Part shown: one piece after another, positions 505 through 29,750 of the stretch
How the letters are laid out: the number at the start of each line of letters is the position of its first letter
Position numbering within the stretch: the first letter of the stretch is position 1
Assembly (NCBI GenBank): GCA_032718475.1
Contig: JAUCBJ010008674.1
Coordinates: 1-41,443, forward strand
Source: Nemertoderma westbladi
Taxonomy: Eukaryota > Animalia > Xenacoelomorpha
Reading direction: 5' to 3'
Length of the DNA: 41,443 nucleotides
The notes under the pieces: generated by a model
The model's database searches: none
What the model was told of the DNA's origin: nothing
The model's input: only the letters and a program-made list of their open reading frames with translations
Program-made: the position numbers and the translations under genes

Positions 505-2728
505 CCGCGTCCTCGTTTGTGTCTGCCCGATTACTTGCTCTGGATAAAAACCCTGGCGTCCATCCCATAGGAATAGGCGAGGTCCTCCGCAGGGTAGTCG
601 GGAAAGCTGCGATGACTTGCATCTGAGAAGATCTGCAGGAGGTGGGCGGCTCGGTTCAGATGTGTTTGGGGCAGAAATCCGGTATTGAATCCGCCATCCA
701 CACCCTAAACGATGCCTTCACCACCGCTGACTGTGATGCAGTTCTACAGATCGATGCTACCAATGCTTTCCATTCGCTGAACCGGCAGGCGGCGCTGCAT
801 AACATCCGGCAGGTCTGCCCGGCACTCTATACAATCGTGGCGAATTGATATGACCAGCCATCGTGTTTATTCGTCGGTGGAGAGTCTCTTTTCTCCGAGG
901 AAGGGTCGACTCAGGGTGATCCGGTAGCGATGCCGATGTTTGGCTGCGGGCTGATCCCTTTACTATTGGAACTGAGTCATGGCTGTAGCTTCGTACAGAA
1001 ATGGTACGCAGATGACGGCAATGCAGCAGGCAAACTTGTCGAACTCCGGAAGTTCTTGGACATTGTTTCCGCTAGGGGGCCTCTCTACGGTTACTACCCG
1101 ACAAAATGCTCCCTTGTTGTAAAACCAGAAAAACTCCAGGAAGCAAAGGTAATGTTCGCGGACACCAATTTTACAGTCGACTCGGTTGGTAACAAACTCC
1201 TGGGAGGTGTTATCGGCACCGAGGAGTTCCATAACAACTTCATCGAACAAAAAGTCGAGGAGTTTGTCGCAGACGTGGAACGACTCACTACCATCGCCGC
1301 TGTTGATCCACATTGCGCATACGCCGGACTGGCATTCGGTCTGTCCTGTCGGTGGCGGTTTCTGGCGCGCGTTGTCCCTGGAGCCACGGACAGATTTGGT
1401 GGTCTGGAGGAGTCCGTAGGGAGGTGTCTGTGCTGGATATTTGACCGCCCAGCAATAACACCGGTAGAACGGCAACTGATGTCGCTCTCGGTTCGCGATG
1501 GTGGGCTAGGGATTCCTGTACCAGCTGATCTACAGCCCCAGTACGAATATTCCCGGAGGATTTGCGAACCGTTTGCCTCCTTGGAAGGTGAGTCTATGGC
1601 AGTGGTGAGAGAGGAGCAGACACACATAGCCAAGTTAGTAGCCACCTCTTCATCAGTTGTAGCGAAAGCTAAAAAGGAGGAGGTTTACGACCAATTAAGT
1701 TCTGACCAATCATAATTTGGTTATACTAACTACCGAAAAAGGTGCGTCTGCGTGGTTAAACACCAAACCACTCACCCTGCACGACACTCACCTGTCCAAA
1801 GGAGAGTTTAGGGATGCTGTTTGTCTCCGCTACGGTTGGTCGCCGAAGAACCTGCCATCTCATTGTGTTTGTGGGTCCCGATTTTCTGCAACCTACGTTC
1901 TGTCGTGTCCCACTGGAGGTTTCCCCTCCATCAGACACAACGAGATCCGCGATTTCGTCGCCGACACCCTAACCGAGGTGGCCCACAATGTGGCAGTCGA
2001 ACCGATGCTCCAGCCACTAACGGGGGAGTCCTTCTCCCTCCGCTCCACCTCGACGGACCAGCTGGCGCGGCTCGACGTGTCGGTGAGCGGATTCTGGGGC
2101 AATCGCCACCAGAAAATGTTTATCGACGTGTCGGTGTTCAACCCGCTGGCGGACACCAACACGGCGATGTCGATTGACGCCTCCCATCTCCACCACAAGG
2201 TGAGGAAGTGCCGGAAATATGAGGAGAGATTACGCGAGGTGGAACACTCCACCTTCACTCCCTTAATTTTCTCTGCTTTCGGCGGAATGGCACCATCTGC
2301 CCATCAGTTTGTCAAACGACTGGCGGTGAAGTTGTCCGACAAATGGCAGGTTCCCTATCCGGAGTGCGTATCATGGGTATGTCGGCGAATCAGTTTCTCC
2401 CTCCTCAGGTCGTCCTTAATGTGTTTACGCGGGTACCGTTCGGCTGCTAGGCAACCGGTGCGGGAGGCAGTCACCGACTCATCGATCCAGTTGGCTAACG
2501 CGGACTCAGACCCTGGGGTGTTGGCGCAGTTCGGTAGGGTGGGGTAAATACAGTAGTGTGCTCCATACACCGTAGAGACTGTTTCTGTGTTGGGGGCAGG
2601 TAAAGGATTTCATTTTAAATTTCCCTCTTACATTGGTTGCCTAGTAACGTTGGCTGGTGGTGGGTATTGTTTAACATTAACGTTTTATTATCTATGTGAA
2701 TAAATGAGACTTAAGAGTTAAAAAAAAA
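505..2728 (+). mobile_element. 5'-truncated CRE-clade-like non-LTR retrotransposon (RT plus C-terminal restriction-like endonuclease) inserted in the satellite
   Basis: Coding motifs as in the next entry. AATAAA at 2699-2704 and an A9 tail at 2720-2728. TSD ATTACCATATAAGT at 491-504 and 2728-2741. Confidence 0.9.
507..2547 (+). pseudogene. Disrupted RT-zinc knuckle-RLE endonuclease ORF of the CRE-like element
   Basis: RT motifs ARLLALDKNPGVHPIGIGEVLRRVVGKA, LQIDATNAFHSLNR, GSTQGDPVAM and KWYADDG. C-terminal CVCG..YVLSCPTGG, RHNEIRD and RLDVSVSGFWG..FIDVSVFNP. In-frame stops near 624 and 846, and a stop/frameshift near 1713-1717. Confidence 0.9.
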
Positions 2729-3141
2729 TTACCATATAAGTACGCGTATGTAACTTAAACCTATTACCATATATGTACGCGTATGTAACTTAAACCTATT
2801 ACCATATACGTATGCGTATGTAACTTAAACCTATTACCATATACGTGTACACGTATGTAACTTAAACATATTACCATATACGTACGCATATGTAACTTAA
2901 ACCTATTACCATATACGTACGTGTATGTAAACATATTCCTATTACCATATACCTATGAGTAACTTAAACCTATTACCATATACGTACACGTATGTAACTT
3001 AAACCTATTACCATATACGTACGCGTATGTAACTTAAACCTATTACCATATATGTACACATATGTAACTTAAACCTATTACCATACACATACGCGTATGT
3101 AACTTAAACCTATTAGCATATACGTACGCGTATATAACTTA
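2729..3141. repeat. Right part of the same satellite, mostly 36-bp units
   Basis: The same unit resumes immediately after the poly(A) tail. Confidence 0.97.
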
Positions 3142-11245: not shown

Positions 11246-11287
11246 ATATAAAATATGGGGTAAAATATGACATTAAATTTAAAATGA
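11246..11287 (+). repeat. Left arm of a perfect 42-bp inverted repeat
   Basis: Exact reverse complement of 12566-12607. Confidence 0.9.
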
Positions 11288-12565
11288 ATCCAATACTCTA
11301 ATGACATGCCAAAATGCAAAGGAATTTAGAACATGTTAAAGAAATTCGAGATCAACATAGGGGATATCTCTAGTCACGTGTTTTTACAAAAAACACACCC
11401 CACCACTCGATTCAGGGCACCTTGTTACCCCTCACTCCATTGTTTCTAGCCCATCTATTTTTTCGCTCACCAACCCTATATTGTTCCAATCGGTGTCGAG
11501 CTCTGTTCTCTTTATCAGGACAAATTTCGTTACTTAAGATATTACATAGGCCTAAGTAAGTCTACCTACGTAATTTAGTTTCCGGTGTATTATTACATAT
11601 TAGTCCTAAGAAAAAAGCCAAGATAATAAATAAATTCATCCATTCGCCGCGAACGACATCTTTCAAACTCGCTTCATATTTAAATTCAACCATGACCTAC
11701 TAAATATGTAGTAGGTCATGATTCAGCAAATCTATACATAATACAGGCCTGCACAGAATTATTAACTTTTATTACTTATTTATTAATTAATTAGTTTTAT
11801 TTAGCTATAAGAGGCGTCCCGACATTGATGAATTCGAAATTATGTATGTATCCAATCCACAACAGCTTGTTGCATCAACTTGTTATTTGCCCATTATACG
11901 TTGTGGTACTGTAATTCTCGAAAACCGAACTTCTTTAATATTCAACCCCACCTCAACTCAGAAATGCCATTAACTGTTGTTACACTACAATCTCGCCTCT
12001 TCCAGCCAGCCAGACACTACTATTGTATTAACGGAAGGGTCGTCCTGTTCACGATTTTCTACCAGGGATGGGTACCTCCTGGCCGAACTGACATGTTGGC
12101 CTACCAATAAAATTATTTCGCTGACGGTTCAAGAACAATGGTGTCTCTGCGCATATCCGCTAGGTCGGAGAGGTTCTGATTGACACATGAGGCAACGTTG
12201 TTCCTGAATCTACCGGTATTGCGGCCGATCTCTTTACTAGTTTACTAGAAATTCAACGTATTCTTGCCGATCAATGTAACAGAGAAATCCATGGTTTAGG
12301 AGGCAGCAGCAGCAGGTACTACCCGGGGTAAGGTAATAAGTACTTTTGTAATATATGCCTATAATTAAGGATTTCTAGTTCTAGAACATATTATTTATTC
12401 AGGATGTGAAGCTCGCATACAGTTTAATTTTTTTAGAAACCGGATATTATTTTCTATTAAGTGTTATTGATTTTAAATCTTACATTGTTATTAGTACGAG
12501 GCGGTATTATGTGTTTCTAACAACCAAGTATTTCAATGAAAATTTTATATATGAAAGATTTTACC

Positions 12566-12607
12566 TCATTTTAAATTTAATGTCATATTTTACCCCATAT
12601 TTTATAT
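12566..12607 (-). repeat. Right arm of a perfect 42-bp inverted repeat
   Basis: Exact reverse complement of 11246-11287. Confidence 0.9.
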
Positions 12608-15774: not shown

Positions 15775-16301
15775 GGAAGTTAAAGACGAAACTAGCTGAA
15801 TTTTCACCAAGATCCAGAACTATTGTTGTTGTTAACATATTAATGTTAATATTCAATCCACATATGAACCCCGATCAAAAAATAACTCGGCATATTATAA
15901 AAACAAGCCATTCCTGGAAATACTGACGACACAACTTACAAATCCTAAATACCGAGCACCCCACTAGATATAAAGCAAAAACAAGCTATCTTATAGACAT
16001 TTCCATAACCACCTCAAATAAAACAGATAACTACTATATTGAATGCAATACATTTCCGGCTGACTCTTCCGATCACGAATTTATAGTACTGAAATCCAAA
16101 CACGAAACCAGTATATACACAGTTAAATTCCGCGATCTTTCACATTTTAATGAATCTGATTTTCTTAATGAAATTAGTAAAATTGACTGGACGAATAATT
16201 ATTTTACAAGCAATGTAGATTATGTTTATGACAACTTCGAAAATAAATTAAATGAAATATATGATAACCATGCACCAATTAAAACTAAACGCATACGAGC
16301 C
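15775..16301 (+). mobile_element. CR1/L2-group LINE ORF2, 5' portion (end of APE), interrupted by the LTR element
   Basis: HPTRYKAKTSYLIDI..SSDHEFI..FRDLSHFNESDFLNEISKIDW..DNHAPIKTKRIRA. The frame continues after the LTR element once one TSD copy is removed. Confidence 0.82.
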
Positions 16302-17558
16302 TGTAAAAGCTTCTGTGGGATATAACTGGCCCTTTTGCTTCGCAATCCAGTTTCCCCCCAGGCGCTGGAATACTCTAAAAAGGTTCTCTAACTGTACATA
16401 TATTCCCCTCGCCCGCAAGGTACCGTTACAGGTGTTTTAACGGACATAAAAGTCATTCTGCTATATACGTGTTTTAGCGGACATGGTAAGGCAAAAAACC
16501 CGCAATATGGCAAATACTTTTACACAGCTTAGCCGTGATGATTCAGATTACGACATCTAGCAGCTGGTTGCTGACATGGAAACAGCCATTGGACGCGTGG
16601 TTCTTTGTTTGGCTTGAGCCAATCAGGGCGATTTTTCCTGTCGACGTGTAGCTTTTCGGCCGATCATAAAGAGAGTGTTCAGTCTTACAGTTTTTACTGA
16701 TACTTTGTTGTTATTGCTGTCTAAGCCAGAAACACCGGCTCTAGAGTTAATTCTTTTCATACTTTAAGAAGAAACATTAGTAGGCTTAAATTATAGAGCG
16801 TATGACTGTTATCAGTCAAATCCATTCACAATTCAATACTTTGTTGTTATTACTGTTCAACATACATTATTATACTGCTATTTACTGTTGTGTTTGGTTG
16901 AATATTATTTGGAGAACATATATAAAGAACCCAAATTTCCCAATTTTCTTGATACACTACAGGTTAGAGAGACGGGTTATATATATAGCGATTGCGACTT
17001 ATATTGTTGTGGTTTGTAGTGAATTTAATGCTATTTGATAAGCACTACATTGGTCCGTTGCTATTCCCTTTATATATGATAAAATACATTGACGGGCGGC
17101 AAATTAATGAGCAGTATTGTGTGTTACCGGTAGTGTGCATGATTGTGACCGATAACTAAGCATTTCCTAAAGAATGCGACTCATACGTGAATCATAAGCC
17201 TTACCGACTTACCGTTGTGATTGGTATAAGTCATATCTCTGTTTACTTAGATAGAGCGCCACGTCCTAAAAGGAACTGTTAATATTTCCCGAAAGTGAAT
17301 AATATTAGTCAGAAATTAATTATTAATGATCAATCGAATAATACAATACCGTAAGCTTCACTGCAATAATAATCTAAGCCCTCAGAATCCAGTCTCCCGG
17401 GATTATCCAGCGGGTGAATGGACGCGCACTAGGCTGGCTTCTGCTAATGTTGTGTTTATTGGTATTAAATATTGTCATTTTCTAGAGTCGATTTATAAAC
17501 CAAAAGACATATAAATTTTGGCAGGTTAAACTGCTAAAGGTCTTCAAAAGCGCGTACA
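16302..17558 (+). repeat. 5' LTR
   Basis: TGTAAAAGC...GCGCGTACA. About 4 substitutions relative to the 3' LTR, found by eye. Confidence 0.97.
16587..16685 (+). promoter_or_regulatory. Candidate LTR core promoter (CCAAT boxes and an Inr-like TCAGT)
   Basis: Reverse CCAAT (ATTGG) near 16588, AGCCAATCAG near 16617-16626, TCAGT near 16679. Motif match only. Confidence 0.4.
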
Positions 17559-17569
17559 ATAACAGTCAT
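17559..17569 (+). other. Non-tRNA primer-binding site, ATAACAGTCAT (putative self-priming)
   Basis: Abuts the LTR end, lacks TGG, and is the exact reverse complement of ATGACTGTTAT at 16802-16812 (27067-27077 in the 3' LTR). Confidence 0.75.
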
Positions 17570-19054
17570 TGACTTTATTGCAGTAAGCAATAAAGTTGAA
17601 AGTACCGATCGACCGGTAAACCTGAACCGGCACTTCTGTAGGTCCGTAGGCCCAACTGTCCTAACCGGTACTTCCAGTATAAGTACATTAGTATTATTCG
17701 ATTTTGATTATTGTATACCGGTAGGTCTTAGTATTTAATCAGGGACTGCAGCCCTGGTTTTTTATTGAGATTTTACTCATTTCTGTCGGTTTTATTTACA
17801 TGTAAGTTAATATTGAGCTGAAGACGTGTAAGTCTGCTCAGATTGTTCAGATAATTGTAGGCTGAGCTGCTGTCTGACTGTTGTTGGGTTTGGAGAGATT
17901 ACGGCGTGTGTAGAGTTTGTCTGATAAAGTGCAGTTAGTAAGTTGGGGCAGCCATATGCTGCAAGGTCAATCCCCTCTTAAAGAATAAGTCGTACTACCG
18001 TGTTAGAACGCATACTAACTAACTATTTCAGAATCTACACGTACGGTAGTTTATTTAGGCTTGGTGGTAGTCTGCCAGCGTTTTGGTTTGTATTTGTTTG
18101 AGTATTCTGTACGGGTAGTGTAATATTTATTATTCAGAGTTTATGCGATTATTCGCAACATTCATGTCCCCAAGTTTATTCCTACAGTAATTGTGTTTGT
18201 TATACATACCGTTATAGTTAAATTAACCTCGGTACTACACGGGCTGCTTGGCGTAGGACAAGACTGGTGACTTTGTGCCCTGGTCACTCCAGCAGATGCC
18301 GTGGTTCTTTTAACTGTTCAAGTATATTTAACTACTGATTATTTGTTATACCGGTACTTGTACCTAATTTAGGGTTTAGTGTACAGTGCTTTCCGAAGTA
18401 ATTAGTGTAGGTAGTATATTTGTGTTGTAAAGTGGTTGATAGGCACATTCGTTAGCTCTATTAGCTTCTGGGTAGGAACAATCCGTGATACATAACGTAG
18501 TACCTATAGCGATACGGTTATAGGTCGTCAGGCGGTGGTATTTTCCTATCTGGACAGTACAATATATTTACTACTTATTATTTCAAATACCGTAGTACCC
18601 TGTTCGTTGTAAGAAGCCGATCTAACCCTTTGTTAGGCTGGTTTGTAGATTTCCTGTAAAATTACCCTAAAAATTTCGTACGTAATATTTTTGTTGTGTT
18701 TAATTAGAGAATTAATCTCACCCGTATCGTAAGTAATTTGTAGTATTAAGTAACTTAGGTAAATTAGAATTATCAGTTTTAGTGTCAAATAAATAGCACT
18801 TCACTGAGAGCGCACAGCTTCTGTGTAGTGACCCCCAGAAATAATAACATTTATTTCAAATATTGACAAAAAACCCATTTAAACGGGTATATAAATATTA
18901 TAAATCAAATCAAACGATTTATAAATAGTAGGCCTGCCATACGACAACTAGGTCTCACTATCAGTTGGACTACTGCTTAAATAACGGTAATAAAGTAAGT
19001 TAAAGTAACTAAGTAACCCTAAAATATTCAGGAATTCAATTATTCTAAAAAATA

Positions 19055-19355
19055 ATTGACATACCGGTACTTACCATAGGCTTATTATATTTATCTCTAT
19101 AAATTTGAGCTGAAATCATACCGGTACTCTGTCATTAATTCTAGTTCATAATTATACTTACATGCTGTAAGTGTAAGCTGTATACCGGTATTCATTATAG
19201 GCCTACTATATATATATATATTTGTGCTAAAATTATATACCGGTACTCTGTGACAAATCTAGTCTGTAATAATACTTATATATATATTATAAGCATACCG
19301 GTATTCTAATATATTATATATATATCACGCTACACTGAGTAGCAGTATCGGTAAT
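19055..19355. repeat. Degenerate tandem repeat (about 119-bp dimer of about 59-bp units) centred on palindromic TACCGGTA
   Basis: TACCGGTA at 19062, 19119, 19183, 19238 and 19296, with a degenerate copy at 19346. Confidence 0.8.
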
Positions 19356-19440
19356 TAATTATTAGGCTAACAGTGATACTGAATTACTAGACTTGCTTTA
19401 ACTGTAATATAGCAGTAGGCATTCGACTGTACAATCAAAC

Positions 19441-22400
19441 ATGGCTGACACAAGGCAAACTCTGTCAGATAGTCTCCTAGAAACAACAGCCTGTTTCTCA
19501 GATCAAAGTGTAGAGAATCCCAGACCGAGGTCTGAAACCCCTCATACTGTAAGAAGGGCAACCCCTGCAGTGGTTGTGACAGAACCTAGGTTGGTAGAAA
19601 AGATTTCGCAATTTGCGAAGTTAGTGAAGCGCCGTTGGTCTGCCATAGGCACTCGGGCCCAAGTCAAGCGGGATCAAGAAGAAGCTATAAAACAGCAGCA
19701 ACCTCCTAGCCAAGAACCTGGTCCTCAGCGGTCCGATAGCTCCAGTAGTTCGGATACTGTTGAGCGGACGCCAGAATGCGGAGCGAAGATGGCGGATACG
19801 GTTTATGATGGGCAGCCAGCCTGTGGGGAATCAACCGACGCCACTTCTTCTCAAGTGGAAAGTGAGGTGGAAAGCGAAGTGGAAAGTGAGGTGGAAAGCG
19901 AAGTGGAAAGCGAGGTGGAAAGCGAAGTGGAAAGCGAATTAACATCAGCAGAGAAGCCGCGAACTAGAGATGCTATCGACATTTATTTGTCCGACTATCA
20001 GCGATTCCTAGGAGACGAAGAGTTGAGGAGACGGCTGTCTGGACTTTCCCCTAATAGTGAAGGAACCAAGCTTGTGTTGGACTCAATCGATGCCGAAATG
20101 TTAGCTGCAAACCAAGCTGAATGTGATGAAAAACTCCGCCTCACTAGAGTCCGAGAAGAGCAAGTAAAGAAAGAACTGATAGAGAGAAGAAGGGTAGCAG
20201 CAGCAAAAGCGGCAGAAGCAGAAGCAGAAAGAAAAACGGCGGAAGCCGAAAGAAAGGCAACAGTGGCAGAAGCAGAACGGAGAGCGTCTGAGGAGACTAC
20301 CCAACTGGAGTTGGAAAATCTGCAAGAGACACAAGACAGTATAAATAAACAGTTTACTGCTAATCAAATGCAGATGATGAGAAAATCTACTCCCAGGCGC
20401 CAGGGATACACATCCTCGGAGGAAGGCGATACTACCGATCCTGAAGGCGGAGGAAATAGATCTCGTCTAAGCAGGCGTAGAAAAACATCTCACCGTCATA
20501 AACTGCCTGATTTGCCCCCAGCTGTCAGAAGACAACTAGCTAGCACAGACTTAGGTAGTACAGAACCCACAGAACAAATTATTCAGGTCACAAGACTCCC
20601 TACAATAGTTGATGAGCCTGAAATAATTAGGCCTGTCGTTCCCAAAGTCACTTCTGTGTTAGAGACCCCTGTACTTCCAGAGCTTAACTCTAAATTCCCT
20701 TTACATAGTACTACACTGCCTGTACCCGGTGGAACAGTCCATGCAAATACCCCTGTCCAGATAGCAGAGAGAGAAATCAATAATTTGTCTCCCGTCGTCC
20801 CGCGTCAGCCCGCTACTATGTTGGCGACTCCCGCTTCGGCGGTTGAGTGGGTAGAGGAGGGACGGCGGGGGATGAATCTCCTGCTAGGACAGATGCAGGA
20901 GACTGTCCACCAACTTAAGGGAACAGTGAGGGAAGGTAGAGCAGAGTTGCAAGAAGTGCAGCAAAGTATCGCACTAGAACGCGACAAATTAGTCAATATC
21001 CAAAAGGGCATACCAATACCCCCTGTAACATTGTGTCAACCTGTTAGGTCTGAAGTATTACATGCGCAAGGTGTGGAGCCTACACGCATCTATACTGCTA
21101 GTGAAGTAGAAACTCCTATAGCAAACCCTATTAAGGGTGATTATAGACCTGTTATTAATGATATTCCCTATAGACCTGATAATGATCCGAGAAATTTATA
21201 TACCGATAATTCGATATTAAATAACACGATGGCCCAAGAAAGCTTTACGCGTCAGATGGCTAGAACAGAAGCCCGCCAAGCGGTCAAAGTGGGAGAGATC
21301 GTCAAATTCAATGGAGATGAGATGAAATGGTTACCTTTCAACGAATATTACAAAGATAGCATACAGAACTCTGTACTATCTAACGGAGAGAAACTTAGAT
21401 TCCTCATCAAGTGCTTGGAAGGACCTCCCAAGTTAATGGCGTTAAAGTTTATTGGACATCCAGATGGATTAAGACAAGTTTGGGATACATTAAACATCAG
21501 GTATGGTAACAAGGATAACATAGCTAAGTATTTGTATGCAAAATTAGTAGCCCCCCGACACTTCCTTAGTAGCGGGATTATAGAGTTTTCCGATGAAATT
21601 CAAGAGATCTGTAGACAACTGGACTGGTTAGGTAAGTCGCATGAATATCAGAGTTCCATGGTCATTGGAGCCGTAGTCTCTACTTTACCAAAGGGTGGAG
21701 TATGTACGCGCTGGGACAAGAAAGTGTTGTACATGAATGAACAACAACGCCGAAGCCCTACCATGGCTGATCTCATGTCCTTCTTAGATAGTGAAGTAAA
21801 ATTACAACTCATAAGGCAGTCCAGAGAGAAAACATCGGAAAATAAGGTAAGTGAGAAACCCGTTTCTAGGAGAAGGATAATACCAGTGTGTTATACTGAC
21901 GACGGCGAAAGCCAAGCTTCTCAAGAAGAGGACAGCGGGAAAGACACCGAACGATCTTACTATGACAACAAGACCTATAAAGACGTAAGTAAATACAAGT
22001 CTCGAACCAGTGACAGGAGAGAACAGGTAACAACAACTCCTCCTACGTCTCCTAAGAGAATTCACGGAAGAAAGCCCGAAGAAAGAACGAGAGTGCAGAA
22101 CGTTAACCAAGTTAAGGTGAGTAACATCAAACCAAAATGTGCGCTGTGCGACGGGCCCCACCGTTTGAGTGCGTGTGCAGAATTCCTAAAGAAATCCATG
22201 GCAGATAGACGTGGAGTCCTGTGGGATAAGCGGTTATGTTATAACTGTCTCAGACGCGGACACCAGCGGCGAACCTGTTACTCTGACGCAAGGTGTGCTA
22301 AGTGCGGCGCGAAACATCATAGCCTGTTGCACACGGAATTCGAACGAAACAGCCCGAGTCAGGTAAGTGAGCCCAAATCACATGTCCAATTCAGTGATGT

Positions 22401-23571
22401 GAACGACACTGACCAAAGTTCAGAGTGGGAAGGATTCTATACGGACGAATTCTCCGATGCCAACGAATCCTGTTATCTAATAAATACCGCAGTGTATCGA
22501 GCACTTACTTACGAAAAGGACATCAACGATGAGTTTCCCCCAACCACCTTTGACAAACAACCATCTTGGAAAGCTCCAGCTTCCAACGTAGGAATCAGAG
22601 AATTTCCTGTAGTTCAAGTAAGAGTTCACGGTCTTAACAAAAGCTACATAGTGAACGCCCTCCTTGACTCCGGCAGCACAGGAACATTCATCGATCAAGA
22701 ACTAGCCGAAGATATCTTTGCTGGACAACCCAAGTTCCGGACTAAATTAAATATGTCAGGAATTATGCAGGTTTGGAAATCTACCCTAACGGCAGATTAC
22801 TATGTAGGTGTGTTGTCCACCCCCCAGGATAAGTTAGGAACACAAGCGATAAGGTCAGTAAAAATGGTGGCTATAAAGAACTTTGCTACTACTCAAGCAG
22901 AACCTTATAACTGGGACGAGGACGAGTGCATCCAACATCTTGAGATACCTCGATTCCAAACCGATTATCCTGGAGTGCAAATCCTCATCGGCCAAAACGC
23001 GCATGAGGCGCTCGAGACATTGGAGAAACGGCCTGCTCAACCGCAGCCATTACAAACTTATGCGGTAAGAACTAGAGTAGGTTGGTACTTCACTGGCCCT
23101 TCCCGTAGAACTCTCAAAGAGAGATTACCTCAACAACAGGTATACCAAGTAAAGGAATGGGAAGTGGAGAGCAGTGATGTGGACGATCCAACTGAGGGAA
23201 CACCATACTCCTCAGATAATGACGATATTAACTCCAATGTAGATCAATGGAGACATTGCCTTGGGACGATTAATCCAGCCGACATTGCTTCCAGAGGAGC
23301 AACTCCTCAAGAACTGATAGATAATCCAGGCTGGTTAGGTGGATCCGACTTCTTAAGTAAAGAAGAAGAAGAATGGCCTCCTCATCTTACCACGGCGGAG
23401 GTTAGACAGGCCAAGGGAGCGGAGAAAGTAACACAACAACTCAATCGCCCAGCTAGTCGTTTATGTTTACTGGAAAGAGACCAAAAACTGTCCGGAAACT
23501 ATGGAAGGCAAGATACTCTTCCTACGACCACTTCCCTAATCCGACAAATATCTAGGGACTCTATAACGTAA
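19441..23571 (+). CDS. gag: BEL/Pao Gag-aspartic protease polyprotein with an RNase H C-terminal remnant; RT and integrase absent
   Basis: Capsid-like KFNGDEMKWLPF..EKLRFLIKCLEG..LNIRYGN. BEL triple knuckle CALCDGPHRLSAC, CYNCLRRGHQRRTC and CAKCGAKHHSLLH. Protease ALLDSGSTGTFI..ILIG..RTRVGW. QWRHCLGTINPADIASRG..WLGGSDFL..EEWP. No YxDD or integrase core. Confidence 0.93.
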   Translation: MADTRQTLSDSLLETTACFSDQSVENPRPRSETPHTVRRATPAVVVTEPRLVEKISQFAKLVKRRWSAIGTRAQVKRDQEEAIKQQQPPSQEPGPQRSDSSSSSDTVERTPECGAKMADTVYDGQPACGESTDATSSQVESEVESEVESEVESEVESEVESEVESELTSAEKPRTRDAIDIYLSDYQRFLGDEELRRRLSGLSPNSEGTKLVLDSIDAEMLAANQAECDEKLRLTRVREEQVKKELIERRRVAAAKAAEAEAERKTAEAERKATVAEAERRASEETTQLELENLQETQDSINKQFTANQMQMMRKSTPRRQGYTSSEEGDTTDPEGGGNRSRLSRRRKTSHRHKLPDLPPAVRRQLASTDLGSTEPTEQIIQVTRLPTIVDEPEIIRPVVPKVTSVLETPVLPELNSKFPLHSTTLPVPGGTVHANTPVQIAEREINNLSPVVPRQPATMLATPASAVEWVEEGRRGMNLLLGQMQETVHQLKGTVREGRAELQEVQQSIALERDKLVNIQKGIPIPPVTLCQPVRSEVLHAQGVEPTRIYTASEVETPIANPIKGDYRPVINDIPYRPDNDPRNLYTDNSILNNTMAQESFTRQMARTEARQAVKVGEIVKFNGDEMKWLPFNEYYKDSIQNSVLSNGEKLRFLIKCLEGPPKLMALKFIGHPDGLRQVWDTLNIRYGNKDNIAKYLYAKLVAPRHFLSSGIIEFSDEIQEICRQLDWLGKSHEYQSSMVIGAVVSTLPKGGVCTRWDKKVLYMNEQQRRSPTMADLMSFLDSEVKLQLIRQSREKTSENKVSEKPVSRRRIIPVCYTDDGESQASQEEDSGKDTERSYYDNKTYKDVSKYKSRTSDRREQVTTTPPTSPKRIHGRKPEERTRVQNVNQVKVSNIKPKCALCDGPHRLSACAEFLKKSMADRRGVLWDKRLCYNCLRRGHQRRTCYSDARCAKCGAKHHSLLHTEFERNSPSQVSEPKSHVQFSDVNDTDQSSEWEGFYTDEFSDANESCYLINTAVYRALTYEKDINDEFPPTTFDKQPSWKAPASNVGIREFPVVQVRVHGLNKSYIVNALLDSGSTGTFIDQELAEDIFAGQPKFRTKLNMSGIMQVWKSTLTADYYVGVLSTPQDKLGTQAIRSVKMVAIKNFATTQAEPYNWDEDECIQHLEIPRFQTDYPGVQILIGQNAHEALETLEKRPAQPQPLQTYAVRTRVGWYFTGPSRRTLKERLPQQQVYQVKEWEVESSDVDDPTEGTPYSSDNDDINSNVDQWRHCLGTINPADIASRGATPQELIDNPGWLGGSDFLSKEEEEWPPHLTTAEVRQAKGAEKVTQQLNRPASRLCLLERDQKLSGNYGRQDTLPTTTSLIRQISRDSIT
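19855..19938 (+). repeat. Coding 12-bp tandem repeat (GTGGAAAGYGAR)x7, encoding (VESE)7
   Basis: Directly visible, in frame within gag. Confidence 0.95.
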
Positions 23572-24107
23572 TAACATATGGAGTGGGCGTGTGACTATAT
23601 CATTTTATATTTGTTTTTATTTTATATTTATGTATGTATTATTATGTAATTTTATTATAATCGTTTTCTTTAATTTTATTTAGTAGAATGTTATTTTAGT
23701 GATTATTTAGTAGATTAGTGCAATATATTAGTGTTTATTACGTATGTAATTACTTATAATATATATTTAGTGCGACGGCGAGAAATAATTATTTTTCTCT
23801 TTCCTTACTGTCCGTATCATATTATAAATACGTGACTACAGTAAGATGAAATGTCCGTACTTATTAAAGTACAATAAAGCCACTACTATATTCAAGTATT
23901 ATTGGTAGGCAGAGTATTAGGAATGCAAAGTTCAGATCCTCGTGTCTCGGCTAAACCAAGCTCTGGGTAGACCTTGGAAACGACTTGCCTCTTCACACTG
24001 ACATTGCTTCGTGCGATATTGCTCTTCTACCTTATATTAAATAATACATATAGTAGCGTGATGTCCATATAACAGTAGCGTAAAACGCAAATAAATCTGT
24101 TAAACTT

Positions 24108-24390
24108 TTGACCATCTGTAATTCTAGTCGATTAAGATATCGCGGCACCCACCGATATACTTGAAAGACAAATTCTAGAATCAGTGGTTAACGTCCCCAG
24201 ACAAGTTCTGGAATAAATCGGTGCCCATCTTAAATATTAATTTAATATTTATTAAAATCTGTAAAATTCAGATCCTTTAACAATTCTAGTCGATTAAGAT
24301 ATCGTAGCACTTACCGATATTCTTAAAAGACAAATTTCATAGAATTAAGGATCCTATGTTCCCAGACCCGCTCTGGAATCAAATTGTGTC
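24108..24390 (+). ncRNA. Two tandem copies (162-bp period) of a putative structured cis-RNA module: long stem-loop, short hairpin and possible pseudoknot
   Basis: Pairings read by eye. The outer stems differ in sequence between copies but still pair. Confidence 0.6.
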
Positions 24391-24761
24391 AATTTTAACA
24401 TCAAATAATAAAATTCACGGGAATAAATTTAAATTCATACATTAAATGAATTTCATAAATTGTCATTTTGTACAATTTATAACATTCCCAAAATTCCATT
24501 AATTAATAGATCATGGGAGCGGAGATTCATCCTATTGAGTGTATTAGAGTGCGAGAATCTCCAACATATAGTCAATAGCCGATAAAATTAATAAAATCAT
24601 GCATAAAGAGGATATTGACAATTAAAGAATTATTATTAAATAGCATCCCAGATCTGTATGCATGAGAATTACCCTAATTCTACCGCTAGCATTCCATAAT
24701 GTCACCATAACAACACCCACGCTAGAATTAGAAGCAAGTTAAGAAAACAATAGAAAGCTTG

Positions 24762-25158
24762 TCACATTGCATAGCATAGAGAATACATAGCACGCTGTTA
24801 GTATCCAAGGATACACAGTAATAACGTGACATTCTGGAAGGCACTGACTAACGGACAAATGGCCTGTATGTGTACAATTGGTGACAGTTGTGTGGAATTT
24901 GTGCGTTTGTAGGTGAATGTTACTGCTAAGGTGTGTTTACAGTAGCTAGTCGCAATTGTGAAAGTAACCCAACTCTCCTATAGAAAGAACCTAAAGTGGA
25001 TTCAAGCCTTTGGGACGGACAGTGGAGTGACTTGTGCCGGTTATCGTTGTCGTACTGTTGCTACATGTTGGCGTAAATACCGCGACAACGGTACATCGGC
25101 GCTGAGGATCCCACTGTCCGGGGGCAAAGAGAAGTAGGCAGCGACGCCCGCTCGCCTA
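24762..25158 (+). ncRNA. Putative multi-domain structured RNA (IRES-like) upstream of the accessory ORF
   Basis: Nested helices with many G-U pairs, a GUGA tetraloop hairpin (24873-24892), a 105-nt hairpin (25016-25120) and a hairpin at 25135-25158. Confidence 0.5.
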
Positions 25159-25199
25159 AATATAAACTTATTTGATATTAATAAACTCAGATAGCAGAT

Positions 25200-26488
25200 A
25201 TGACGGAGTTGATAGAAGATGATCTTGGTATCAGGGAGCGATATACTCTACCTTTACAAGCATTTGTGGATAGCTTGATACGCGGTGAAACCGATCCAAC
25301 CATTACGGAGGACGATGGTCGTTATATCGAACCGCCGATGTCCCAAGAGCAACTTACGCGTGAATTGGACTATCGAAAATTCACCGCTCGCTATACGCAT
25401 CGTAATGGTACGTATATGGACTTCCTAACTACCAGCCATCCTATCGGTTTACATGATACGGACGATGAAGACACCGAAAGGGAAATGGTTCTATTTAAAT
25501 ATCATACCCAGCGGAGTCGGAACGATAAACCGAGAATAGATCACGAAAATTCTATTCGTAACAGACTGGGAGGACGAACCAGTATGCCTAGAATCTGAGG
25601 AGATTCAGCCTGTCGCGCCCGGAGCAGCGACAACGATTGCATCCTAGAATGGTATCAAGGTCCACAGTGTCTCACTGCGTACGATTATCGACATGCCAAC
25701 TATGTTTCTAGGCAACGTTGTCGGTTATGCGCATCGAGAGACCACGATACGCCAATGGACACCAACGTCCGCTGTTCCTATTTCAAAGAACAACCGACTA
25801 TGGAAATTTATTGCGCATATTGCAGACTCAATAACCTGCATATCTTTGCGGTTTGCCCTCAATTTATGACTCGATGTCACCATTGTCAACTAAAGGGACA
25901 CGCCAGTTTCGATTGCCCTTTTAATCGCGATTTGGAAAGCGTGGATGAAATGATCACACTACGTTACATTAGAGCTTGGGAAGCGAAGGCTGATTTACAT
26001 CGTGATTCGCGCCATCGCTATTATCCTGGACGCGCTTACGAAGGAATTTATGCGTTCCATCCTTATCTATTCGCTTCTGTCGAACAGAAATCACGCATAT
26101 CGAGTTACAGGAAGTATATCGACGGCCTTACGAACACCGAGCCCGTGAACGCGAGTTGGAAAGGACCATTAAACCCCGGAGGTTTCTAGCTGCCTATGGT
26201 CCACCCACGGCCCTCGTTCGGACCACTCGTAAGGGACCCGTAAGAGCGGCTGTCTTAAAACGCGCTCTCAAAGCCGTTAGACCCCTCTCCCCCGACGTTG
26301 ATGTCAATCAACCCGGCACTTCGACTGGCGGATACACCGACCATAATCCTACACCCTCTGATGCAATCATATTGCACCCTTCACCCAGGAGTTATAGCCC
26401 TCCTTGTAAAGTGGCTCGCCCCAAAGAGAAAAGGACTCTGGCTAGCTTTAAAAAACTGCGTAAACGCCGTCCGCGCAAGAAAGACTAA
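25200..26488 (+). CDS. Accessory ORF of the LTR element: protein with three zinc-knuckle-like motifs and a basic tail, interrupted by one TGA and one -1 frameshift
   Basis: ORFs 25200-25598 and 25755-26189 share a frame separated only by TGA at 25596-25598. Motifs CRLCASRDH..C, CAYCRLNNLHIFAVC and CHHCQLKGHASFDC. The overlapping -1 frame ORF 26156-26488 ends in KKLRKRRPRKKD. Confidence 0.65.
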
Positions 26489-26558
26489 CTGTTTAGAGTA
26501 TTTACGTATATTAGAAACTGTGATTTTGTATATTTCATAGACTCAAATCCCATTTTCT

Positions 26559-26566
26559 GGGAGCGG
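26559..26566 (+). other. Short polypurine tract (GGGAGCGG)
   Basis: Purine-rich run directly abutting the TG of the 3' LTR. Confidence 0.75.
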
Positions 26567-27823
26567 TGTAAAAGCTTCTGTGGGATATAACTGGCCCTTT
26601 TGCTTCGCAATCCAGTTTCCCCCCAGGCGCTGGAATACTCTAAAAAGGTTCTCTAACTGTACATATATTCCCCTCGCCCGCAAGGTACCGTTACAGGTGT
26701 TTTAACGGACATAAAAGTCATTCTGCTATATACGTGTTTTAGCGGACATGGTAAGGCAAAAAACCCGCAATATGGCAAATACTTTTACACAGCTTAGCCG
26801 TGATGATTCAGATTACGACATCTAGCAGCTGGTTGCTGACATGGAAACAGCCATTGGACGCGTGGTTCTTTGTTTGGCTTGAGCCAATCAGGGCGATTTT
26901 TCCTGTCAACGTGTAGCTTTTCGGCCGATCATAAAGAGAGTGTTCAGTCTTACAGTTTTTACTGATACTTTGTTGTTATTGCTGTCTAAGCCAGAAACAC
27001 CGGCTCTAGAGTTAATTATTTTCATACTTTAAGAAGAAACATTAGTAGGCTTAAATTATAGAGCGTATGACTGTTATCAGTCAAATCCATTCACAATTCA
27101 ATACTTTGTTGTTATTACTGTTCAACATACATTATTATACTGCTATTTACTGTTGTGTTTGGTTGAATATTATTTGGAGAACATATATAAAGAACCCAAA
27201 TTTCCCAATTTTCTTGATACACTACAGGTTAGAGAGACGGGTTATATATATAGCGATTGCGACTTATATTGTTGTGGTTTGTAGTGAATTTAATGCTATT
27301 TGATAAGCACTACATTGGTCCGTTGCTATTCCCTTTATATATGATAAAATACATTGACAGGCGGCAAATTAATGAGCAGTATTGTGTGTTACCGGTAGTG
27401 TGCATGATTGTGACCGATAACTAAGCATTTCCTAAAGAATGCGACTCATACGTGAATCATAAGCCTTACCGACTTACCGTTGTGATTGGTATAAGTCATA
27501 TCTCTGTTTACTTAGATAGAGCGCCACGTCCTAAAAGGAACTGTTAATATTTCCCGAAAGTGAATAATATTAGTCAGAAATTAATTATTAACGATCAATC
27601 GAATAATACAATACCGTAAGCTTCACTGCAATAATAATCTAAGCCCTCAGAATCCAGTCTCCCGGGATTATCCAGCGGGTGAATGGACGCGCACTAGGCT
27701 GGCTTCTGCTAATGTTGTGTTTATTGGTATTAAATATTGTCATTTTCTAGAGTCGATTTATAAACCAAAAGACATATAAATTTTGGCAGGTTAAACTGCT
27801 AAAGGTCTTCAAAAGCGCGTACA
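26567..27823 (+). repeat. 3' LTR
   Basis: Near-identical direct repeat of 16302-17558, followed by TSD GAGCC. Confidence 0.97.
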
Positions 27824-29750
27824 GAGCCAGCAATAATATCAAAAGCAACTCGTACAACATATCACCATGGTGGAACTCAGAACTATCATCCCTAAATATT
27901 GAAAAACAGCAAAAACTAATCAGGTGGACACATTCAAAAAGTGAAGGTGACTTTGCAGACAATAAAACAATTACAAATAAATTTAACTCACTAAATAAAA
28001 ATCTAAAGAATAAATATATAAAATCAAAACTAAATGATGCAACTGCAATAAAAGACAAATGGGCAATATTAAATAAAATCACTAATAATAATAAAAAAAA
28101 CCGAGCAAACTATTTCGTCCAACTATTTCGTCCTTAATTAATCACGCAACAGGCTCTATTATTTATAACATATTACCAATGGCGAACCTACTTAATGACG
28201 CATATCTAAATATATGGGTAACTTTCAAAGCACTGGCTATATAAAAAGACATAGTACCGTACTGTTAACTCTAGTTTCAGCTTTAAGAATGTAACCGAAT
28301 TAGAAATATTTGAAATAATATATAAATTAAATACAAATAAACCAACTGGTCCGTCAATATTAAGTCAAAAATTAATAAAACTAATTGAACCGCATATTAC
28401 CCTACTACTAACTCACATCACAAACTTACTTTCCTTCTCGGCTAAAATCATCCTTTATTACTTACGCCTGTATTCAAAAAAGGGTCTCGAGATGAACCAA
28501 CTAATTATATATTCTAATAAATAATCTATTTCTGTCAACATTCGAAAAAATAATTGAAACAGTCATATATCATCAAATTACAAAATATCTACACAACAAT
28601 AAAATACTACAAAATAAGCAATTTGGTTTCAGAAAAGGGTATTCTACAGCAGACGCCGTTTTATTTGCAACTGAGTCTTGGAAATGTGAACTTAACAAAA
28701 AAAAAAATTGCAATTGGAGTCCTAGATCTCTCTAAAGCTTTCAACTCTCTCCAGCACGACATTCTTCTAGATAAATTAACAGAAATTGGATTCCAATCGA
28801 ATGCTGTTGCACTTATTAAAAGTTATCTTTTCGACCGCCCGCAAGGTGTAAAATTAAGTAAAATATTCTCACACTGGAAAATTTGCAATAGGGGTATACC
28901 ACAGGGCACCAAACTTGGACCATTATTGCTTTTAATATAATATGTCAATGACTTTGCAAATCAAATAAATTTGGAAACTATTCAATATGCTGATGACAGA
29001 CACTCTTATATATTGCTCGCACCCAAATCCACATACTGCAGTAAAACAACACTAAACACTAAACAAAAAAAACAACATATATTGCGTCAGCTATTCGCAA
29101 CACTACTGTAGGTATGAAATTAAACTCAAATAAAACAGAACTTATTGTTATATCCCCATTAAAGAGAACAGACGAATTAAATAATCTACATCTTGTGATT
29201 AATAATGACATAATTCAACAATCAACTACAATTAAATATTTAGGCATCATCATAGATAACAGATTATCATGGAAGGACCAAATAAAAACTACTACATTTA
29301 AAAATGGCAGCGGCTGCATCCACAATACGCCAAATAAAAGGACAATTGCCAATCTCTACGAAATTAATATTATACAAATCTCTAGTCACGCCGTACCATA
29401 ACTACTGTAGTATCTTAACAGCGACATATAAAATACTCACGGATATAAGGAACTACTGTACAAAATGGATAAGATTCAAAATTACGCACTTAGGCTAATC
29501 TATAACAAAAAAATACGAGAAACTTCAAGAACAGAACTAAGACAATTAGCTAGGATCCCGCAATAAAAGTTCCAAAATCAACGAACAGATTTGGTCACAA
29601 CTCTTTTATTATCACATGCATAAAATCATGGAACAATTTACCTAATAACATTCGTAAATTTGCACTCCATAATAATTTTTTATCACTATTGGAAAATTAC
29701 TACATAACGCAATATGAAAGAAAAGCAGTAACATAATTACTTAACTAAAC
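27824..29750 (+). mobile_element. CR1/L2-group LINE ORF2, 3' portion (RT), heavily frameshifted
   Basis: SPWWNSEL, VLDLSKAFNSLQHDILLDKL, GIPQGTKLGPLL, QYADD, IKYLGIIIDNRLSW and IKSWNNLPNNIR. Confidence 0.88.

Follow-up and report, generated by a model that had tools for sequence, protein, structure and literature searches.

The window analyzed here, positions 1–41,443 of contig JAUCBJ010008674.1 of Nemertoderma westbladi (assembly GCA_032718475.1), carries an LTR retrotransposon at positions 16302–27823 (its parts all lie on the forward strand). Comparison of the window with itself revealed two 1257-bp LTRs, the 5' LTR (16302–17558) with TG..CA ends and the 3' LTR (26567–27823), which is adjoined by a purine-rich tract (PPT, 26559–26566). 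The two LTRs are 99.68% identical, and with only four substitutions between them the insertion is young. A 5-bp target-site duplication, GAGCC, borders the element on the left (16297–16301) and on the right (27824–27828), and the element splits a LINE reading frame that resumes beyond the insertion. Because the interrupted LINE frame and the GAGCC duplication fix both ends of the element, the end of the 5' LTR at 17558 is secure. The flanking LINE contributes an endonuclease-side frame on the left (15927–16301) and RVT_1 on the right (27824–28940). The middle of the LTR varies in length among the family copies of run X1, whose contigs on 16980–17503 include LTR variants omitting 152–232 nt with ends that are not GT-AG. 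Elsewhere in the window, two arrays of a 30/35-bp satellite (1–515 and 2693–3136) flank a GC-richer region, and the 280-aa open frames between them (849–2547) have no Pfam match; perfect 42-bp inverted repeats lying 1278 nt apart at 11246–12607 likely belong to a non-autonomous DNA transposon.

The coding content places the element in BEL/Pao. A 1376-aa ORF (19441–23571) encodes Gag and protease, with a DUF1759 domain (E = 8e-12), Cys/His knuckles and an LLDSGS protease, and the protease is joined in frame to the end of a BEL/Pao RNase H, of which about 50 residues remain, up to 52% identical to homologues. A tblastn search with 70 homologous polyproteins found no trace of the reverse transcriptase (RT), of most of the RNase H or of the integrase in the element. 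Of the ORF's 70 protein matches, almost every one contains either Pao RNase H (PF05380) or DUF1759; the best homologous stretches are ~30% identical, and the top named matches are nemertean and sea-urchin elements. No close relative of the protein was found in our searches: metagenomes gave no match to the element's own protein, nor did viral contigs to that protein or to alignment A1. The Gag with DUF1759 and Cys/His knuckles, the DSG protease, the Pao-type RNase H tail, the polyprotein homology, the TG..CA LTRs, the 5-bp duplication and the PPT are all those of Belpaoviridae, while the order PR-RT-RH-IN is reduced to the PR-to-RH-tail fusion and an 18-nt tRNA-type primer-binding site (PBS) is missing. 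The element is classed here as a BEL/Pao derivative that is non-autonomous, a point the first-pass annotation had only implied, rather than as an autonomous member. It is also no Ty3/gypsy chromovirus of the Tf1/sushi group, since its protein matches are of BEL/Pao type.

Several features of the coding region have no assigned role. The N-terminal extension of Gag, ~600 aa long (19441–21240), contains 7–8 four-residue units (VESE) in tandem as well as a stretch predicted to be coiled. In the place of env, extra 3' reading frames of unassigned function with in-frame stops (25185–26488) comprise an acidic part, a stop at 25596–25598 and a Cys-rich, knuckle-like part, which matches zf-CCHC_3 below the cut-off (E = 0.003) and for which a search of proteins of 107–343 aa gave no homologue at E 1e-3. 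A spliced gag mRNA that would leave out the PBS together with the 1.9-kb leader is suggested by a donor-like CAG/GTTAG in the LTR (16960–16968) and by a tract resembling an acceptor (19400–19416), which has tandem AGs and lies ~25 nt ahead of the gag ATG; the joints listed for run X1, which may be DNA, do not include this one.

The 5' LTR is followed directly by the predicted PBS, ATAACAGTCAT (17559–17569), which is not of the tRNA-CCA type, the first TGG after the LTR lying at 17755, 196 nt beyond. ATAACAGTCAT is the exact reverse complement of 16802–16812, an 11-mer that occurs once per LTR (the second copy at 27067) and ends in AT; it is the predicted self-primer, with a predicted cut after 16812. 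The pairing has an offset of 0 from the LTR end and extends beyond the 11 nt on neither side; the primer/PBS duplex is worth −12.4 kcal/mol. The first-pass annotation had described the LTR end, the missing TGG and the 11-nt match in this way, and all three stand, the first being borne out by the LTR pair, the duplication and the split LINE frame. An ~11-nt PBS at the U5 boundary that is complementary to the element's own LTR is the arrangement of Tf1, Tf2 and Tj1 of the Tf1/sushi group, which, in the available text of PMC7175516 and PMC4600332, likewise have no tRNA site and, immediately behind the 5' LTR, a sequence to which 11 nt of the LTR are complementary. The window contains no tRNA gene, and 16000–28200 has no Rfam match. 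A longer, splice-built primer was sought in this element and discarded, the best candidate having 10 nt, fewer than the contiguous 11.

To judge how often such a match arises by chance, we compared it with shuffled and control sequences. Dinucleotide shuffles of the LTR reached it at offset 0 in 17 of 20,000 cases and at offsets 0–4 in 39 of 20,000, in agreement with the original estimate of order 1e-3, and control 11-mers matched the LTR in 6 of 8,900 cases within the element and in 11 of 29,832 outside it. A match at ~1e-3 is by itself insufficient in a large scan, and the case for self-priming therefore rests on the relatives. We consider it very unlikely that the match arose by chance in this element and that the true primer is a host tRNA half or another small RNA, or that the site has decayed. 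Such an explanation gains from the level of ~1e-3, which a large scan can reach, from shuffles in which splicing was allowed (2 of 150 did as well) and from the richness of the LTR in TGTTAT-like words. The ICTV profile of Belpaoviridae, which gives tRNA priming for the family, also speaks for it (PMC8742986), as do our trees (see below), which differ on the kinship of the element with the self-pairing group. However, the copy is young, and its pairing agrees in length, offset and primer end with that of relatives whose PBS letters follow their own LTRs.

These relatives come from an alignment of 14 top-scoring full-length polyproteins, which led to 64 BEL/Pao loci in metagenome contigs, drawn from the best 80 of 516 confirmed stretches. 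A whole LTR is present in 25 of the 64 loci; the other 39 are without the needed LTR parts. For eight loci, the 3' end of the LTR is known independently, from its two copies. None of the eight has a TGG there, and every one of them pairs 11–15 nt with its own LTR, 0–3 nt past the LTR; the pairing is contiguous in two (L004, L061) and spans a GT..AG intron in the other six (L006, L021, L022, L048, L049 and L063). Their scores were reached in 0–3 of 400 per-element shuffles in which any splice was allowed, and their primers all end in AC or AT. Pairing across elements extended over 4–9 nt, except for 10–12 nt among L004, L006, L022, L048 and L049, whose sites are similar. Over all whole-LTR loci, at least 11 nt are paired in 22 of 25 and at least 10 nt in 24 of 25, against 3 of 500 shuffles, under a rule (a site starting with purine-T, an offset ≤ 6, acceptors of the AAG type and an intron that may span two LTR pieces) that was adjusted after inspection of the data. 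The only locus below 10 nt, L024, pairs 11 nt once a TATA-ending LTR is allowed.

Merging near-copies left 21 families, 19 with at least 11 paired nt and two with 10. In every one of the 21, the paired segment lies at a distance of 0–6 nt from where the LTR ends. For 13 of them, this end was derived from the pairing, which is weaker support than that of the eight fixed-end loci. No family has a TGG at the PBS (0/21). The primer is contiguous in five families and split by a GT-AG intron in 16, of which 12 have a GTAAGT donor; acceptors are pyrimidine-rich (that of L007 is mis-assigned in our intron table). Since the intron splits the primer in 16 of 21 families, the partner of the PBS would exist there only as spliced RNA. 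In each of the 16 split families, no more than 4–7 nt separate the acceptor from the predicted 3' end of the primer downstream of it. In one contig, L031 (1–13253), BEL/Pao copies are arrayed head to tail with a period of 6138 nt and apparently single shared LTRs, which may be an effect of assembly. A blind scan without knowledge of the LTR end recovered pairing in 16 of 51 loci and in 79 of 2,040 shuffles; such scans were weakened by coding sequence or by a 26-nt margin that cut off several true sites, and the top matches of L010 and L058 look like chance. In distant families, the pairing of the Tf1 type is kept while the letters are changed. Because these BEL/Pao relatives pair with their own LTRs using differing letters, self-priming in some form is, on sequence grounds, very probable.

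How closely the element is related to this group was examined with trees built from the Gag, protease and RNase H-tail sequences. The relatives are at most 32% identical to the element over 422 columns. LG+G4 trees (63 and 40 rows, thinned) place it outside the group on a long branch near insect-type elements, a position that carries a long-branch warning, whereas a mixture-model tree (26 rows) joins it to the marine group (SH-aLRT 93). A clade of the element and 15 marine rows is not rejected (p-AU 0.63), which does not show a clade. The element possibly belongs to the marine Sinbad/Sparrow/Surcouf 'Sailor' lineage outlined in excerpts of PMC6238403; the trees were built from sampled rows, with no reference elements included. 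Element and group share their geometry, namely an offset of 0 (L061, L063), 11 nt and an A-pyrimidine primer end. In run X1, 730 contigs match the element's family, many of them diverged copies, and leave 16770–16909, which includes the primer, uncovered. The only PBS variant listed there, 17567 C>T in two contigs, keeps a G.U pair, and no strand-changing joint between PBS and primer was found in these contigs.

The first-pass annotation had also likened the priming of the element to that of Tf1. In Tf1, RNase H cuts 3' of an 11-nt primer that consists of the RNA's first 11 bases, according to the part of PMC7175516 at hand. Our promoter analysis does not favor this form for the element. The predicted core promoter (16619–16672) consists of a CCAAT box at 16619 and a TATA-like CATAAAGA at 16665, which precede the 11-mer by 183 and 137 nt; CATAAA is a variant TATA box, which counts against an internal primer. 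TATA-like boxes occur in five of the 21 families, at −124, −133, −135, −138/−144 and −167 from the primer, and the remaining 16 have no such motif (two of these have < 125 nt of upstream sequence), which likewise counts against an internal primer. Neither in the window nor in the 21 families is there one at −25 to −35. In addition, split primers have only 4–9 nt before the intron, and a whole first exon of this length is implausible. From the TATA spacing and these short segments, the start is predicted at ~16695, and the primer would lie at about +107 to +117; it probably sits within the RNA and is released by cutting. A start of the RNA at 16802 has points in its favor: the pairing ends at exactly 11 nt, 16801–16802 is a pyrimidine-purine step, and the Tf1 PBS likewise begins with ATAAC, probably by coincidence (excerpt of PMC11042837). 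But the boxes at −124 to −167, rather than near −30, and the 4–9 nt first exons that split primers would require make it quite unlikely. The claim that a BEL/Pao lineage primes itself is strongly supported by comparison, through the pairing in 8 of 8 and 22 of 25 loci and the missing TGG; its strict Tf1 form is not favored.

Two further motifs bear on the ends of the RNA. A candidate polyadenylation signal, ATTAAA (17464–17469), lies 652 nt past the primer in the element, and poly(A)-like signals follow the primer end by 12–91 nt in most relatives examined, so that the primer would lie in R. The idea that the primer sits at the poly(A) site itself was not favored, as the signals are downstream of the primer end rather than upstream. 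Similar LTR units occur at 16676–16720 and 16807–16860 (TCAGTC ... ATACTTTGTTGTTATT). From the Inr-like TCAGTC at 16812, transcription could begin immediately beyond the primer, which would resemble the non-productive downstream start of fission-yeast Tf2 reported in the accessible portion of PMC5341516.

RNA folding gave a mixed picture. The 13-bp hairpin directly 3' of the PBS (17569–17599) folds well (z = −2.6; 4 of 200 shuffles as good), as does the 6-bp hairpin TGACTG-TTAT-CAGTCA (16803–16818; −7.2 kcal/mol; 8 of 200 shuffles), which spans the predicted cut, overlaps the Inr-like TCAGTC (16812–16817) and repeats PBS letters 5–10 in its 3' arm. Both had been pointed out before, the second as a possible switch; their folding is supported, whereas no local structure common to the relatives was found, and a conserved switch was not seen. 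In the best fold of the window's element, the PBS is looped out, with a weak U5-leader stem (p 0.35) on one side and the 13-bp hairpin on the other, and a pair enclosing the PBS has p > 0.5 in 11 of 21 elements, a count that has no shuffle control. A conserved single-stranded PBS is unsupported (unpaired 0.51 against 0.47), and so is extra pairing 5' of the primer (p < 0.05 in 2 of 22 elements, Fisher p 0.07; window p 0.42), a result that fits an RNA starting at 16802. At equilibrium, the computed probability of the primer:PBS helix is ~1% for an RNA from 16695 and ~18% (at 37 °C), the highest value, for one from 16802; the low value counts against an internal primer. The competing hairpin raises the prospect that the pairing is selected for packaging, dimerization or a switch with the local hairpin, priming being achieved otherwise. 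We regard this as extremely improbable, since every family has its paired segment within 0–6 nt of the end of the LTR, the place from which minus-strand synthesis has to begin, no tRNA-type site takes the place of the PBS, and the relatives have no local structure in common.

The main rival to priming in cis by an internal primer is priming in trans, which fits the same data: a separate LTR-derived RNA, either a co-packaged spliced RNA or a short within-LTR transcript trimmed to 16812, would anneal to the PBS. An unspliced template with a spliced donor RNA would also account for the primer-splitting intron in both LTRs, the poly(A)-like signals shortly after the primer end in most relatives could end a short transcript, and the cis helix is rare in equilibrium folds. 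In the element, however, the ATTAAA is so far past the primer that much trimming would be needed, and the Tf1 precedent employs the element's own 5' end. Overall, trans priming appears unlikely, and cis self-priming by an internal primer from the element's own RNA is the probable reading of the sequence data.

For this cis reading, we infer the start site, the cut, its enzyme, the cis geometry and the supply of RT and integrase in trans as follows. Transcription would start near 16695, and the RNA would be packaged with the RT of a helper element, which would provide RT and integrase. Nucleocapsid would anneal 16802–16812 to the PBS across ~750 nt; we speculate that the hairpin loop TTAT nucleates on the PBS and displaces the stem (the duplex being at −12.4 and the hairpin at −7.2 kcal/mol). 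Cleavage after 16812, for which the RNase H of the helper's RT is the probable enzyme, would give a 3'-OH, and the freed ~115-nt 5' piece would prime minus-strand DNA from its 3' end. Minus strong-stop DNA would end at 16813 and jump to the 3' LTR, which would template everything upstream. Copying of the LTR upstream of the primer end from the 3' LTR would account for the primer intron that relatives retain in both LTRs.

The element works like Tf1 and is not a Tf1/sushi member. Tf1/sushi elements are Ty3/gypsy chromoviruses, whereas the element has a BEL/Pao Gag and RNase H tail; its primer is predicted about 105–120 nt inside the RNA, with a loop of ~750 nt, rather than as the first 11 nt, and in most of its relatives the primer is intron-split. 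Self-priming has been reported or predicted for Tf1/sushi, Tcn1 and the plant TAR/Houba/Osr-1 copia elements in the available parts of PMC4600332, PMC6317226, PMC6934838, PMC5443660 and PMC3601003. For the TAR lineage (Houba, Osr-1; plant Ty1/copia) and the Tcn1 chromoviruses, it was likewise predicted from PBS-LTR complementarity, but they belong to other superfamilies and hosts, and the passages of PMC6317226 at hand describe no intron-split primer. The ICTV profile of Belpaoviridae gives an 18-nt PBS for host tRNA-Arg or tRNA-Gly and calls BEL/Pao replication poorly understood (PMC8742986). Unlike this description, the element and all 21 sampled families have no TGG-type PBS, and a self-primed element departs from it. 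Term look-up in the searchable text of the surveys PMC3118150, PMC554778 and PMC6238403 found no PBS text for BEL/Pao, the available text of PMC8220671 and PMC13524379 does not address BEL/Pao self-priming, and the element's PBS motif is absent from seven supplements of PMC13524379. Our search, in which subscription journals were thinly covered, found no publication on BEL/Pao self-priming or a splice-built primer, which does not establish absence from print.

Taken together, we lean towards the view that a widespread marine branch of BEL/Pao has swapped tRNA priming for a cut-released self-primer ~110 nt inside the RNA with a conserved A-pyrimidine end. Host splicing would build the primer in most families and so gate reverse transcription, and the element in the window would be an intron-less, long-LTR, non-autonomous member with a ready-made primer. 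From such a model follow a cut site in the RNA and a splice junction, both of which would be directly readable in RNA data. Because the primer would come from the element's own LTR and no tRNA-type site is present, tRNA-based PBS finders would fail on such elements. If true, LTR elements of a third superfamily would be self-priming, by means of a primer that is internal and in many cases built by splicing; this would be a further independent release from the need for a tRNA, and possibly also from silencing through tRNA fragments.
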